A stretch of 64,000 nucleotides of DNA, taken from IMG/VR virus record IMGVR_UViG_2875703104_000004; one strand, written 5' to 3'. Below are positions 1 through 64,000 of this stretch, in pieces. Position 1 is the stretch's first letter; the number at the start of each line of letters is the position of its first letter. The position numbers and the translations under genes are program-made. Below the pieces are notes generated by a model. That model was not told the DNA's origin. It worked only from the letters and a program-made list of their open reading frames with translations, and did not search any database. Origin of the DNA: a virus (Duplodnaviria; Heunggongvirae; Uroviricota; Caudoviricetes).

Positions 1-1244
1 ACGGAAACCACGCAGTTATTCCGTACGCGTTTTAAAGCCGTGAGTCCGAAACGGGTGGACACGCCTGGACACGGTATGGGGAACCGTTTTCTGCGGGCCG
101 GTGTGGAGGTCGATCGATATGGCCGTGCCGTCGCGTACCATATCTGTGAGGATGATTTTCCGTTCTCTGGTAGTGGACGATGGGAACGGATCCCGCGTGA
201 ACTTCCCACCGGGCGTCCGGCCATGCTGCATATTTTCGAGCCGGTGGAGGACGGGCAGACCCGTGGGGCTAATCAGTTTTACAGCGTCATGGAACGGCTG
301 AAGATGCTCGATTCCCTGCAGGCAACACAGCTTCAGTCGGCCATAGTGAAGGCGATGTATGCAGCGACGATTGAAAGTGAACTTGATACCGAAAAGGCCT
401 TTGAATATATCGCCGGCGCGCCACAGGAGCAGAAGGATAATCCGCTTATTAATATTCTGGAGAAGTTCTCCAGCTGGTATGACACGAATAACGTGACACT
501 GGGCGGTGTCAAAATTCCGCACCTTTTCCCTGGTGATGATCTGAAACTACAGACTGCGCAGGATTCAGACAATGGATTTTCTGCGCTTGAACAGGCGCTG
601 CTGCGGTATATCGCCGCCGGTCTTGGCGTTTCCTACGAACAGTTGTCCCGTGATTACTCGAAGGTCAGTTACTCAAGTGCCCGCGCCTCCGCCAATGAGT
701 CGTGGAACAGGCGCTGCTGCGGTATATCGCCGCCGGTCTTGGCGTTTCCTACGAACAGTTGTCCCGTGATTACTCGAAGGTCAGTTACTCAAGTGCCCGC
801 GCCTCCGCCAATGAGTCGTGGCGCTATTTTATGGGGCGGCGAAAATTTATTGCGGCCCGGCTGGCCACGCAGATGTTTTCCTGCTGGCTGGAAGAGGCAC
901 TTCTTCGGGGGATTATTCGTCCGCCACGGGCACGTTTTGATTTTTATCAGGCGCGATCAGCCTGGTCACGGGCAGAGTGGATTGGTGCCGGAAGAATGGC
1001 CATTGACGGGCTCAAGGAAGTCCAGGAATCAGTGATGCGCATTGAGGCCGGACTGAGCACGTATGAGAAAGAGCTGGCGCTGATGGGCGAGGATTATCAG
1101 GACATTTTCCGCCAGCAGGTCAGGGAATCTGCTGAGCGGCAAAAAGCCGGACTCTCACGTCCGGTGTGGATAGAGCAGGCGTATCAGCAGCAGATAGCGG
1201 AGAGTCGTAGGCCGGAAGAGGAGACAACACCACGTGAGACGTAA
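1..1244 (+). pseudogene. B: portal protein (lambda gpB-like), 5' end outside window, frame broken by a 116-bp tandem duplication
   Basis: Translation matches lambda-type portal (..RFLRAGVEVDRYGRAVAYHICEDDF.., C-terminal ..RMAIDGLKEVQESVMRIEAGLSTYEKELA..); N- and C-terminal parts lie in different frames (ORFs 40..1035 and 702..1244). Confidence 0.8.
589..820. repeat. perfect tandem direct duplication, 2 x 116 bp, inside portal gene
   Basis: Unit starting gaacaggcgctgctgcggtatatcgcc occurs at 589-704 and again at 705-820; 116 is not a multiple of 3. Confidence 0.9.
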
Positions 1245-2739
1245 TCTTTCACACATTATTGCCGCAGCATTCAATGAACCGCTGCTTCTGGAGCCCGCCT
1301 ATGCGCGGGTTTTCTTTTGCGCGCTCGGGCGCGAGATGGGGGCAGCAAGTCTTTCGGTACCACAACAGCAGGTACAGTTTGATGCTCCCGGAATGCTGGC
1401 TGAAACGGACGAGTACATGGCCGGAGGTAAACGACCGGCCCGTGTTTACCGGGTGGTGAACGGTATTGCTGTACTGCCGGTGACCGGCACGCTGGTGCAC
1501 CGGCTGGGTGGTATGCGGCCATTTTCCGGAATGACAGGCTATGACGGCATTGTCGCCTGTCTTCAGCAGGCAATGGCGGATAGCCAGGTGCGGGGCGTAC
1601 TGCTGGACATTGACAGTCCGGGCGGGCAGGCCGCCGGCGCGTTTGACTGCGCTGACATGATTTACCGCCTCCGTCAGCAGAAGCCGGTCTGGGCACTGTG
1701 CAATGACACGGCCTGTTCTGCAGCCATGCTGCTGGCGTCGGCCTGCTCCCGACGGCTGGTTACCCAGACATCCCGTATCGGCTCCATTGGCGTGATGATG
1801 AGCCATGTCAGCTATGCCGGTCATCTGGCGCAGGCCGGTGTGGATATCACGCTGATTTACTCAGGGGCGCACAAGGTGGATGGCAATCAGTTTGAAGCGT
1901 TGCCGGCAGAGGTTCGCCAGGACATGCAGCAGCGGATTGATGCGGCGCGCCGGATGTTTGCCGAAAAAGTGGCGATGTATACCGGTCTGTCTGTTGATGC
2001 CGTCACGGGAACAGAGGCTGCCGTTTTTGAAGGTCAGTCCGGCATTGAGGCCGGGCTGGCGGATGAATTAATCAATGCGTCGGATGCCATCAGTGTGATG
2101 GCCACGGCGCTGAACAGTAATGTCAGAGGAGGCACTATGCCGCAATTAACTGCAACGGAAGCCGCCGCGCAGGAGAACCAGCGAGTGATGGGGATCCTGA
2201 CATGCCAGGAAGCGAAAGGACGTGAACAGCTTGCCACGATGCTGGCAGGACAACAGGGCATGAGCGTTGAACAGGCCCGGGCGATTCTGGCCGCGGCGGC
2301 ACCGCAGCAGCCGGTGGCATCCACGCAGAGTGAAGCCGATCGCATTATGGCGTGTGAAGAAGCGAACGGTCGTGAACAACTGGCGGCAACGCTGGCGGCG
2401 ATGCCGGAGATGACGGTGGAAAAAGCCCGCCCGATCCTGGCTGCTTCACCGCAGGCGGATGCCGGACCATCACTCCGTGATCAGATCATGGCACTGGATG
2501 AGGCAAAAGGGGCTGAGGCGCAGGCTGAACAGCTGGCTGCCTGCCCGGGAATGACAGTGGAGAGCGCCCGGGCTGTGCTGGCTGCGGGATCAGGTAAGGC
2601 AGAACCGGTCTCTGCATCCACAACCGCCATGTTTGAACATTTCATGGCGAACCATTCACCGGCAGCGGTACAGGGTGGCGTGGCACAGACGTCAGCAGAC
2701 GGTGATGCGGACGTGAAAATGCTCATGGCCATGCCATGA
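1234..2739 (+). CDS. C: prohead protease / scaffold protein (lambda gpC-Nu3-like, S49 peptidase family)
   Basis: 501-aa ORF from GTG overlapping the B stop; motifs FNEPLLLEPAYARVFFCAL and SRIGSIGVMM fit lambda C; C-terminal part has three ~40-aa repeats. Confidence 0.85.
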   Translation: MRRNLSHIIAAAFNEPLLLEPAYARVFFCALGREMGAASLSVPQQQVQFDAPGMLAETDEYMAGGKRPARVYRVVNGIAVLPVTGTLVHRLGGMRPFSGMTGYDGIVACLQQAMADSQVRGVLLDIDSPGGQAAGAFDCADMIYRLRQQKPVWALCNDTACSAAMLLASACSRRLVTQTSRIGSIGVMMSHVSYAGHLAQAGVDITLIYSGAHKVDGNQFEALPAEVRQDMQQRIDAARRMFAEKVAMYTGLSVDAVTGTEAAVFEGQSGIEAGLADELINASDAISVMATALNSNVRGGTMPQLTATEAAAQENQRVMGILTCQEAKGREQLATMLAGQQGMSVEQARAILAAAAPQQPVASTQSEADRIMACEEANGREQLAATLAAMPEMTVEKARPILAASPQADAGPSLRDQIMALDEAKGAEAQAEQLAACPGMTVESARAVLAAGSGKAEPVSASTTAMFEHFMANHSPAAVQGGVAQTSADGDADVKMLMAMP

Positions 2740-2775
2740 AGTCAGTGCTGACCATCAATAGGAGGTTTTTACAAT

Positions 2776-3123
2776 ATGGTGACGAAAACCATCACTGAAC
2801 AGCGTGCGGAAGTACGTATTTTTGCCGGTAATGATCCGGCTCATACCGCCACAGGCAGCAGCGGGATTTCCTCGCCAACACCGGCACTGACGCCCCTGAT
2901 GCTGGATGAAGCCACCGGGAAACTGGTGGTCTGGGACGGACAGAAAGCCGGTAGTGCGGTTGGCATACTGGTACTGCCGCTTGAAGGCACAGAGACGGCG
3001 CTGACGTATTACAAGTCGGGAACCTTTGCGACGGAGGCAATCCACTGGCCTGAAAGTGTGGATGAACACAAAAAGGCCAACGCCTTTGCTGGCAGTGCCC
3101 TGAGTCACGCGGCGCTGCCGTAA
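2776..3123 (+). CDS. D: head decoration protein (lambda gpD-like)
   Basis: 115-aa ORF with GGAGG RBS, at the position and size expected for D between C and E; Gly/Ser-rich N-terminal region. Confidence 0.8.
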   Translation: MVTKTITEQRAEVRIFAGNDPAHTATGSSGISSPTPALTPLMLDEATGKLVVWDGQKAGSAVGILVLPLEGTETALTYYKSGTFATEAIHWPESVDEHKKANAFAGSALSHAALP

Positions 3124-3130
3124 CACGTTA

Positions 3131-3152
3131 TCAGGCCACCGCGGTGGCCTGA
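3131..3152. promoter_or_regulatory. 22-bp perfect palindrome in the D-E intergenic region
   Basis: tcaggccaccgcggtggcctga is its own reverse complement; no T-run follows, so not a classical terminator. The second module has a one-mismatch copy at about 25083-25102. Confidence 0.4.
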
Positions 3153-62910: not shown

Positions 62911-63143
62911 AGTAATAATATCCAATTTATCCCTCATTCCTTAAGTAAGCGTACACTGGCCGCGTACACCATGGCATAATGATATGTTGTTTTACTGATA
63001 TTTCCGGCTGGTAAAATCCCCGACGGCCCGGCTGAAGCTGGTGCAGGAAAGCGGGTTAATTGTCACTACGCGGGATAACCTGTCTGGCTGGATACAACGT
63101 ATTGCCACAGATATGCAGCAACTGCGTCAGTCCGGAATGTCAG

Positions 63144-63416
63144 TCATCTCCGGGGATGTTGGGGTCTCAGGCACACTGATCGGCCCCCCGTGTTGTTTCC
63201 GGGTACTGTTTTTGATTTATGCAACAAAGTATTGCAGCGTCGAATATGAGCTATGGCCAGATTTTTGTTAATCGTGGTTGTTGCAACATGTAAGGCGAAT
63301 GACCACACTATTCTGGCACGCTCGTAATCACGCTGAAATTCCGCTTCCTGTGCTGCCGTGAAGAGTTCCGACCAGGACATACGGCGAAGTGTATGTCTGT
63401 CAGTAATATCCGTCAT
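63144..63416 (-). CDS. hypothetical protein, third gene of an overlapping three-gene unit
   Basis: 90-aa ORF; ATG overlaps the stop of the upstream gene (ATGA); AGGAGG-like sequence upstream; no family recognised. Confidence 0.45.
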   Translation of the reverse strand: MTDITDRHTLRRMSWSELFTAAQEAEFQRDYERARIVWSFALHVATTTINKNLAIAHIRRCNTLLHKSKTVPGNNTGGRSVCLRPQHPRR

Positions 63417-63628
63417 GAGCTCTCAGCTTCCTCCTTCGTATTTCCGTCAGAAACACAAACGCCCCGCAGAGAAAATTCGCCAACATTCTCCTTTTTAATG
63501 GCGTGCAATGCATCGCGACAGGCCCGTTCGGTATGAAATGCCTGGCTGTGCACCGCCAGTGTGGGCTGCCGGGCATCACCGGAAGAGACATTAAAGGGAG
63601 ATGAAAGCCAGAAAATCAGTAGCCACAT
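63413..63628 (-). CDS. hypothetical small protein with hydrophobic N-terminus
   Basis: 71-aa ORF MWLLIFWLSSPFNVSSG.. with two Cys; starts 3 nt after the stop of the upstream gene. Confidence 0.4.
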   Translation of the reverse strand: MWLLIFWLSSPFNVSSGDARQPTLAVHSQAFHTERACRDALHAIKKENVGEFSLRGVCVSDGNTKEEAESS

Positions 63629-63631
63629 GCG

Positions 63632-64000
63632 TCACACCTCGTCCTTTTTATGCGGGTATCTGGCCAGAATATTGAGCGCCTGTAATGGAGCTTCATGCAT
63701 TTCACGGATACAACGGGCATCGGTGATGTTTTCCCTGTAATGCGTGGTTTCCAGCATCATATGATGCATATGCAGCATCCGGGCCAGGGCTGCACGGAGT
63801 TCTTCAATATGTTGTTCATGGGAATGCTGACGGGGTGGTATCCGGCAGAGAGGGATAACCTCCACATCATCCGGGTGCGCGCGAAGCCACGCGTCAGTGA
63901 CTGTAATGTCGTCAGTGTAAAACCATGTGCCGGATGTCCCGTTGGCCAGAAAACGCATTTTCCAGGCTTCTGGGGTGGCGGTTGTGTTGTTATCTTTCAT
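63632..64000 (-). CDS. hypothetical protein, C-terminal 122 codons (5' end beyond window)
   Basis: Open minus-strand frame running to the window edge; His-rich segment HSHEQHIEELRAALARMLHMHHMM; no family recognised. Confidence 0.45.
   Translation of the reverse strand: MKDNNTTATPEAWKMRFLANGTSGTWFYTDDITVTDAWLRAHPDDVEVIPLCRIPPRQHSHEQHIEELRAALARMLHMHHMMLETTHYRENITDARCIREMHEAPLQALNILARYPHKKDEV

Follow-up and report, generated by a model that had tools for sequence, protein, structure and literature searches.

The window, the whole 64,000-nucleotide stretch of DNA analysed here, is very probably part of a short-read, scaffolded pseudo-chromosome in which real pieces of three lambda-like E. coli prophages and of a pathogenicity island appear to be joined in an order foreign to the cell. 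The initial annotation had described a mosaic of lambdoid late-region modules and offered two explanations, namely recombined or adjacent prophages in the host and a scaffold of contigs from different prophages. The scaffold explanation is supported by N gaps, duplicated contig ends, ambiguity codes at sites that vary between paralogs, junctions without a match in finished genomes and dispersal of the blocks in relatives. The other holds only trivially, in that the host has several lambdoid prophages; an arrangement as the window displays it was not borne out.

Source record and composition of the window

Over its whole length, and at the Ns too, the window is identical (100%) to GenBank CP035330.1 at ~2.655-2.719 Mb. 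This record (GCA_004116855.1), which according to one paper stems from a Brazilian ST1193 E. coli strain, was submitted as one CP-accession chromosome of 5.1 Mb, and its own gene calls have H and the holin gene each split at a run of 21 Ns. Three prophages served as references: the icd-site lambda-like prophage of E. coli Nissle 1917 (L001) for block P1, the potB-site lambda-type prophage of SCU-204 (L002) for P2 and the trp-adjacent lambdoid prophage of strain 23AR0151 (L003) for P3. Junctions were searched in 5,426 complete E. coli genomes (a RefSeq set; CP035330.1 is not among them), and duplications were located by self-BLAST of the window. Between the joins identity to finished genomes was 99.99-100%.

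Table 1. Features of the window. Gene names of P1 are those of the L001 annotation; "Pfam" marks rows whose domains Pfam confirms; junctions 1 to 3 are the candidate chimeric junctions.
Feature	Position	Strand	Content and remarks
P1 lambda-type late region	1..16662	+	portal B 3' part, C, D, E, FI, FII, Z, U, V, G, T, H, M, L, K, I, J, stf N-terminal part
Exact tandem duplication in P1 portal gene B	589..821	+	offset 116 bp; frameshift; self-BLAST
~61-bp deletion in P1 tape-measure gene H	9065..9068	+	frameshift
23-bp deletion in P1 gene J	14325..14326	+	frameshift; private to CP035330.1
R_cos, putative collapsed repeat	16662..17988	+	TonB_C-domain gene (Pfam) and region upstream of cos/Nu1; common to P1 and P2; left edge is junction 1
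P2 lambda-type block	17988..32787	+	cos, Nu1, A, W, B, C, D, E through H, M, L 5' part
L 3' end fragment, 405 bp	32788..33192	+	after 63-bp skip; right edge is junction 2
P3 block	33193..50805	+	lysis module, HNH, TerS, TerL, protease-capsid fusion, portal, HK97-type head/tail genes, tape measure, M, L 5' part; Pfam
Stacked alternative L/K-start copies	50803..52071	+	50806-51536 and 51538-52070; single Ns at 50803, 51537, 52071
R_tail, shared repeat	52072..58307	+	L 3' end, K, I, J, lom; common to P2 and P3
Two successive lom 3' end + stf 5' end copies	58308..59993	+	58308-58972 P2 allele; 58970-59993 P3 allele with 11 Ns
sat/iutA/iha pathogenicity island fragment	59994..64000	+	truncated IS30 tail, IS3-family element, IS and lactate-permease remnants; left edge is junction 3
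Truncated IS30 tail, last 152 bp	59994 to ~60145		repeat extent
IS3-family IS629/IS1203-like element	60197-61410		
ALIL frameshift pseudoknot within IS629/IS1203-like element	60478-60594		Rfam

The three late-region modules reported before are present (P1 1-16662, P2 ~16662-33192, P3 33193-59993), and P1 and P2 are indeed paralogous rather than identical, with identities of 97% in B/C, 93% in C-D-E, 81% from FI to H and 87% in H-M-L. The breaks announced at ~16.7, ~33.2 and ~60 kb are real and could be placed exactly. At 16662 the TonB_C gene region upstream of cos follows directly on the N-terminal part of stf; at 33192/33193 DUF1378/holin lysis sequence begins 14 bp past the L stop; and at 59993/59994 the N-terminal part of stf is followed by the IS30 remnant and then the IS629/IS1203-like element. 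A further break had been proposed between 36.0 and 36.9 kb, where none exists. The stretch 33860-50805 is colinear with one natural prophage, L003, at 99.988% identity across 16,946 bp, and 35300-37700 matches MCJCHV-1, SCU-204 and others without a break at 100%, with at least 80% of it covered in 1,228 genomes. The region leaves genes intact, as a natural junction would, but is ordinary colinear prophage, and 33193-50805 altogether is one natural colinear prophage. On the other hand, 69 Ns had been overlooked, and discontinuities total ~18, ~14 of them in addition to those first described; the additional ones are exact 116- and 150-bp tandem duplications, L in three copies, the 5' end of stf in two, and small skips.

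P1 is colinear with L001 16599-33232, the icd-site prophage of Nissle 1917, ABU 83972 and CFT073-lineage strains, at 99.99-100% identity apart from three defects, and ends abruptly inside stf. Besides this cut, what sets the window copy apart from L001 is that 116 bp are duplicated in B, while 61 bp are missing from H and 23 bp from J. The 117-bp unit of B is doubled at the homologous place of P2 as well (589-705, 705-821, 21991-22107 and 22107-22223 are all 100% identical by self-BLAST; doubled stretch in P2 21991-22223), while L001 and L002 have it in single copy. The deletion in H borders on 139 bp that are the same in P1 and P2 (9068-9206 and 31081-31219) and is shared by no finished genome, the best matches to a 201-bp query being two pieces over 266 bp. 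The 23 bp missing from J are retained in all best-ranked finished genomes; no repeat offers an obvious explanation of this deletion, which may be a true mutation.

In P2, window 16661-32787 matches L002 of the ST1193-related strain SCU-204 at 99.7-100% between joins. R_cos equals both L001 12001-13328 and L002 15230-16557 except for 4 Ns, which are the only 4 sites where L001 and L002 differ. Internal joins of P2 consist of a 150-bp duplication at 17988, a 116-bp duplication at 22107, a 397-bp back-jump at N 23293 into a P1-like allele (23294-23968), another 150-bp duplication at 23967, and a run of 21 Ns (31220-31240) flanked by a 129-bp exact duplication. The duplication at 17988 was not found in finished genomes, where 17790-18190 is matched at best by two pieces that span 251 bp. 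In addition to several duplications and an N gap, P2 differs from L002 in having no K-I-J-lom-stf of its own, because this part would be collapsed with the P3 copy. The 3' end of L recurs identically at 32788-33192, 51018-51422 and 52186-52590.

The lysis module of P3 comprises DUF1378, DUF826, holin, DUF1327, lysozyme and Rz. Its holin gene is split by the second run of 21 Ns (33839-33859), again flanked by a 129-bp exact duplication. L003, which has an HK97-type head and also occurs in MCJCHV-1 and SCU-204, is colinear with window 33193-59993 at 99.7-99.99%; the window departs from it by the triplicate L, the duplicate stf 5' end, the split holin and the cut in stf. Within the stacked copies 50904-51536 equals 52072-52704 at 100% (self-BLAST). 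R_tail is complete only once in the window and is 99.7% identical to both L002 30342-36572 and L003 22747-28982, which are 99.2% identical to each other over this repeat. Both lom-stf copies end at the same homologous base of stf, and all 11 Ns of the P3-allele copy (59120-59291) fall where L002 and L003 differ.

The island fragment is 100% identical over 4,007 bp to SCU-204 4,035,252-4,039,258 and to MCJCHV-1 831,235-835,241, and among the finished genomes searched no island match extends to the left of 59994. In another genome an IS1203 is situated close to a tail-fibre gene; it was considered as a precedent for the junction at 59993 and rejected, as >2 kb separate that IS from the intact fibre gene upstream of it.

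Ambiguous bases, duplicated ends and junctions

The 69 Ns are made up of the two 21-N runs, four single Ns at joins (23293 and the three in the stacked L/K copies) and 23 within segments. Every gap or ambiguity character at a join coincides with a jump in reference coordinates. Within segments, 18 of the 23 Ns coincide with positions at which the reference prophages differ (L001/L002 or L002/L003), i.e. 4 in 16662-17988, 3 at 23660-23663 and the 11 in stf. Ns at paralog-variable sites imply that copies were collapsed, and thus that true copy number and order would differ from those written. Untrimmed end duplications occur twice with 116 bp and four times with a period of 150 bp, all single-copy in L001, L002 and L003; two of these four are the 129-bp duplications, which add up to 150 bp with the 21-N runs that they flank, and 150 bp presumably is the read length.

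The junctions at 16662 and at 33192/33193 were each spanned in 0 of the 5,426 complete genomes, while each flank alone was found in ~2,000 genomes, and no match in finished genomes crosses 59993/59994. Exact scans with 42 bp of the 16662 junction gave 0 hits in species-representative genomes and 0 in metagenome contigs. An ORF at 15969-16799 runs out of stf into unrelated sequence; neither this chimeric stf protein nor the frameshifted H fragment was on record in a protein look-up. For the 211-aa L variant of the window the look-up led to CP035330.1. The junctions differ from those of a natural recombinant, which would lie at a boundary or in homology, keep genes intact and recur in related genomes: stf is truncated at 16662 and 59993, lysis DNA follows the L stop at 33192, and none of the genomes searched has these joins. 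Contig ends are found at repeat edges: P2 and P3 stop within ~10 bp of the same L base and the island contig begins 152 bp inside an IS30 copy. There is no tRNA in the window, and the ORF list and the annotation transferred from the references contain no integrase or early genes between the modules.

In finished relatives the blocks are dispersed. In SCU-204, P2 occupies 1.893-1.912 Mb, and the P1 remnant, P3 and the island are found at 1.95, 2.092 and 4.035 Mb, respectively; MCJCHV-1 is alike. The order there is P2, core genes, P1, ~120 kb, P3, as opposed to P1, P2, P3 in the window; P2 at the potB site and the P1 remnant at the icd site are ~17 kb apart in the same orientation. Near-identical segments are common to P1 and P2 in the region upstream of cos and in parts of B, C and H, and to P2 and P3 in the lysis module and the L-K-I-J-lom-stf 5' module.

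We therefore propose the following course of events, of which the exact software steps are conjectural. The strain carries several lambdoid prophages with near-identical segments, plus multi-copy IS elements. The assembler would have broken contigs at repeat edges and merged common copies to a single consensus with an N at each site of disagreement. The contigs would then have been chained in an order not existing in the cell, with overlapping ends of 116 or 150 bp kept untrimmed and gaps marked with a single N or 21 Ns.

Alternative explanations

Prophages of poly-lysogenic E. coli are known to recombine with one another, and a real arrangement would require that such exchange or illegitimate recombination, together with deletions, had joined three truncated late regions and a piece of the island in a 60-kb array. 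The long near-identical segments among the modules could serve as substrates, and CP035330.1 is presented as a chromosome. However, the junctions at 16662, 33192/33193 and 59993/59994 lie outside the shared homology, truncate stf twice and cut after L; they are missing from the 5,426 finished genomes, other joins carry Ns and untrimmed end duplications, and the Ns at paralog-variable sites point to collapsed copies, so that we consider such an array very unlikely. Equally hard to believe is a variant in which the three junctions are genuine in an ST1193 isolate that newly acquired one Nissle-type prophage, with the Ns and duplications being mere local polishing defects. Complete prophages in tandem or side by side, with the window crossing their borders, would be in line with the neighbouring potB- and icd-site prophages of finished relatives. 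Yet neither an integrase, an att-associated tRNA, an early region nor a host gene separates the modules of the window, and their order is unlike that of the relatives; the probability of such polylysogeny appears negligible.

A question concerning P1 only, compatible with the scaffold reading, is whether this 16.6-kb block is foreign to the ST1193 chromosome and came from a contaminating strain or from a reference that guided or padded the assembly. The block is 100% identical to Nissle 1917. It is absent from the finished ST1193 genomes examined, whose icd-site remnant lacks B through I and is only ~94% identical to P1 in J and stf; thus at least one real difference from the references, or a contamination problem, also exists. 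SCU-204 offers only 2 places for the 20-42 kb query, and MCJCHV-1 only one copy of R_cos. On the other hand, Ns at P1/P2-variable sites (17234-17788 and 23660-23663) suggest that both alleles were in the reads, which argues against pure reference padding, and this type of prophage is very common in E. coli (its C protein occurs in 8,058 blocks), so that a true extra lysogen is plausible. We regard a foreign origin of P1 as conceivable but rather unlikely. Reference padding as the sole source of Ns was rejected, because the 11 Ns in 59120-59291 separate alleles of L002 and L003, both of which are prophages of finished ST1193-related genomes.

Thus we favor the view that the window is a misordered scaffold. 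Its arrangement is without biological meaning and is not a real feature. CP035330.1 resembles a finished chromosome, and users should be warned that it is very probably a scaffold in which prophage contigs are misordered, collapsed and duplicated; this region would mislead anyone who derives from it numbers of prophages, synteny, rearrangements or pseudogenes (B, C, H, J, L, holin, stf).

Comparison with known systems

The underlying biology, co-resident lambdoid prophages with common lysis and tail-tip modules, is already well known; the prophages of E. coli O157 Sakai reportedly have such modules in common. P2 and P3 conform to this classical lambdoid mosaicism, their lysis and tail-tip modules being ~99% alike and their head and tail-shaft modules unrelated, but it is not what the reported breakpoints show. 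Rather, genuine sharing of modules between co-resident prophages would be the cause of the misassembly. Collapsed or mis-scaffolded regions in short-read bacterial drafts, especially of poly-lysogenic E. coli, have breaks at repeat edges, ambiguity codes at paralog sites, N spacers, duplicated ends and junctions unseen in finished genomes, as does the window. It differs from them in no substantive respect, the only oddity being its deposit as a single chromosome record.

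Composition of the window

All long ORFs of the window lie on the + strand, and all are phage late-region genes. In BLAST searches of 5,426 complete E. coli genomes each part of the window was near-identical to common prophages, and the order of the parts was found in no genome. Three reference prophages account for the window almost base for base, i.e. the lambda-like prophage at the icd site of Nissle 1917 (L001), the lambda-type prophage at the potB site of SCU-204 (L002) and the trp-adjacent prophage with an HK97-type head of 23AR0151 (L003). Between discontinuities the window differed from finished genomes by a handful of substitutions only. 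The lambda-type blocks P1 and P2 are indeed paralogous, as the initial annotation had stated, with identities of 81-97% depending on the gene. The lysis and tail-tip modules common to P2 and P3, the latter being the block with the HK97-type head, are 99.2-99.3% identical.

Segments of the window, best references and positions in two finished E. coli genomes
Feature	Window	Best reference	SCU-204	MCJCHV-1
P1	1-16662	L001 16599-33232		
P1-type remnant at icd			~1.95 Mb	2.80 Mb
Common P1/P2 region upstream of cos	16662-17988	both L001 and L002		
P2	17988-32787	L002	1.893-1.912 Mb	2.86 Mb
P3	33193-50805	L003 5343-22805	2.092 Mb	2.665 Mb
L-K-I-J-lom tail-tip module	52072-58307	common to L002 and L003		
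lom 3' end and stf 5' end, two copies	58308-59993	L002 copy, then L003 copy		
Pathogenicity-island fragment	59994-64000	SCU-204, 100%	4.035 Mb	0.83 Mb

The HK97-type prophage carries a 2.4-kb 'frameshifted portal' pseudogene according to the NCBI annotation of two independent finished genomes (window 41561-43983; L003 13561-15983; 2561-4983 in L005, a further comparison locus). We read this interval as two overlapping ORFs of 454 aa and then 353 aa. The former has a complete Phage_portal domain, the latter a CBM_5_12 match only, below threshold, and an internal 80% repeat (43077-43355 versus 43239-43517). By appearance these are two genuine genes and not a pseudogene. Between the lysis genes and cos, an ORF of 126 aa at 16828-17208 with a TonB C-terminal domain is 100% conserved across many lambda-type prophages and is possibly a moron gene.

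Junctions between the modules

Three of the four breakpoints claimed in the initial annotation are real discontinuities. Near 16.7 kb, precisely at 16662, the N-terminal part of stf meets the TonB_C gene region upstream of cos. The break after the L stop lies 14 bp past it at 33192/33193, where lysis DNA (DUF1378/holin) takes over. The third, at 59993/59994, joins the N-terminal part of stf to the final 152 bp of a truncated IS30. The two halves of a query across 16662 were each covered in ~2,350 genomes, yet the junction was spanned in 0; likewise, the halves at 33192/33193 were covered separately with the junction spanned in 0, and no BLAST match crossed 59993/59994. On the 3' side of the IS30 remnant follows an IS629/IS1203-like element of the IS3 family. 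At the programmed frameshift site of this element lies, as expected for its kind, an ALIL pseudoknot (60478-60594; Rfam RF01497, 120 bits).

The fourth breakpoint, placed at 36.0-36.9 kb, does not exist. The window is colinear with L003 from 33860 to 50805 at 99.988%, and 35300-37700 gave a single uninterrupted alignment at 100% to MCJCHV-1, SCU-204 and other genomes, with at least 80% coverage in 1,228 genomes. The transition from lysis genes to HNH and terminase is the native organisation of P3.

Ns, duplications and collapsed repeats

The window contains 69 Ns, which had been overlooked. Runs of 21 Ns are located in H of P2 (31220-31240) and in the holin of P3 (33839-33859); since 129 bp of exact duplication flank each run, both inserted blocks measure 150 nt. 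The joins at 17988 and 23967 are exact 150-bp tandem duplications without N. In two of the four 150-nt block duplications (17838-18138, 23817-24117, 31070-31369 and 33689-33988) the first 21 nt were written as N. Exact 116-bp tandem duplications without N were seen at 705 and 22107, and both the duplicated unit and its position within the portal gene are identical between P1 and P2. At four joins (23293, 50803, 51537 and 52071) a single N coincides with a return by 157-583 bp to earlier reference coordinates, and sequence is skipped without N at 9067 (61 bp), 32787 (63 bp) and 58307 (128 bp). Altogether ~18 discontinuities occur within 64 kb. The length of ~150 nt that recurs at contig joins probably reflects either reads of that length or a constant flank introduced by the pipeline behind the matching GenBank record CP035330.1.

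None of the best-matching finished genomes showed the P1 deletions at 9067 (61 bp, H) and 14325 (23 bp, J) or the 150-bp duplication at 17988. Both deletions are private to the window and each frameshifts an essential tail gene; no repeat is evident as a cause of that in J.

Another 23 single Ns lie inside segments, and their placement is not random, 18 of them falling on paralog differences. In 16662-17988, L001 and L002 differ at four positions, precisely those occupied by the four Ns; L001/L002 differences also underlie the three Ns at 23660-23663, and 11 of 11 at 59120-59291 fall on L002/L003 differences. Such a pattern is the mark of a single consensus built from reads of two prophage copies. 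Single Ns also stand at 30945, 33442, 33446, 33480 and 56524, where all references used agree, which hints at a further allele in the read set, e.g. from a mixed population or from a related prophage present as a fourth copy.

Contig ends fall at the edges of repeats. P2 and P3 stop within ~10 bp of one common base in L, and the two stf copies end at an identical base. The H deletion of 61 bp in P1 adjoins a 139-bp stretch identical between P1 and P2, and the island contig starts 152 bp inside the multi-copy IS30 (59994-60145). The recurrence of ~150 bp is consistent with contigs extending one read length into a repeat.

Origin of the arrangement

From 22543 to 43178 the window matches CP035330.1 (GCA_004116855.1, 5,110,451 bp) at 100%, Ns included. 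One paper (PMC11888992) cites the assembly as an ST1193 isolate from Brazil. CP035330.1 was not among the RefSeq complete genomes searched. In its own annotation the genes for H and the holin are divided at the N runs, and the 211-aa L variant that results from the 63-bp skip has been recorded in this contig only.

Very probably, the window is a short-read misassembly of collapsed and misordered contigs from co-resident lambdoid prophages. P1 and P2 share the region upstream of cos, and P2 and P3 the lysis and tail-tip modules. Short-read assembly would break contigs at these repeats and collapse the copies over them, and the contigs would then have been strung together as a pseudo-chromosome, their overlaps left untrimmed and N spacers added. 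The K-I-J-lom copy of P2 would have been merged with that of P3 and written once, 3' of P3, which is why P2 seems to end at L. A true rearrangement in the isolate appears very improbable, and tandem prophages are more improbable still. Neither integrase, tRNA, early region nor host genes were found between modules anywhere in the window, so it is not a series of adjacent complete prophages. Of the two interpretations offered initially, the evidence supports a scaffold of contigs from different prophages and not several recombined or adjacent lambdoid prophages.

P1 is 100% identical to the icd prophage of Nissle 1917. In contrast, the finished ST1193-type genomes SCU-204 and MCJCHV-1, the latter taken as the ST1193 reference, retain only an icd remnant with essD fused to J and without B through I (window 1-16662 versus the comparison loci L006 and L008), and in J and stf they share only ~94% identity with the window. 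P1 therefore derives from an additional Nissle-type lysogen that the isolate may carry, or else from contamination or reference padding. The Ns at sites variable between P1 and P2 favour the presence of both alleles in the reads. As a genomic feature the mosaic arrangement is not real; the prophages beneath it are already known.
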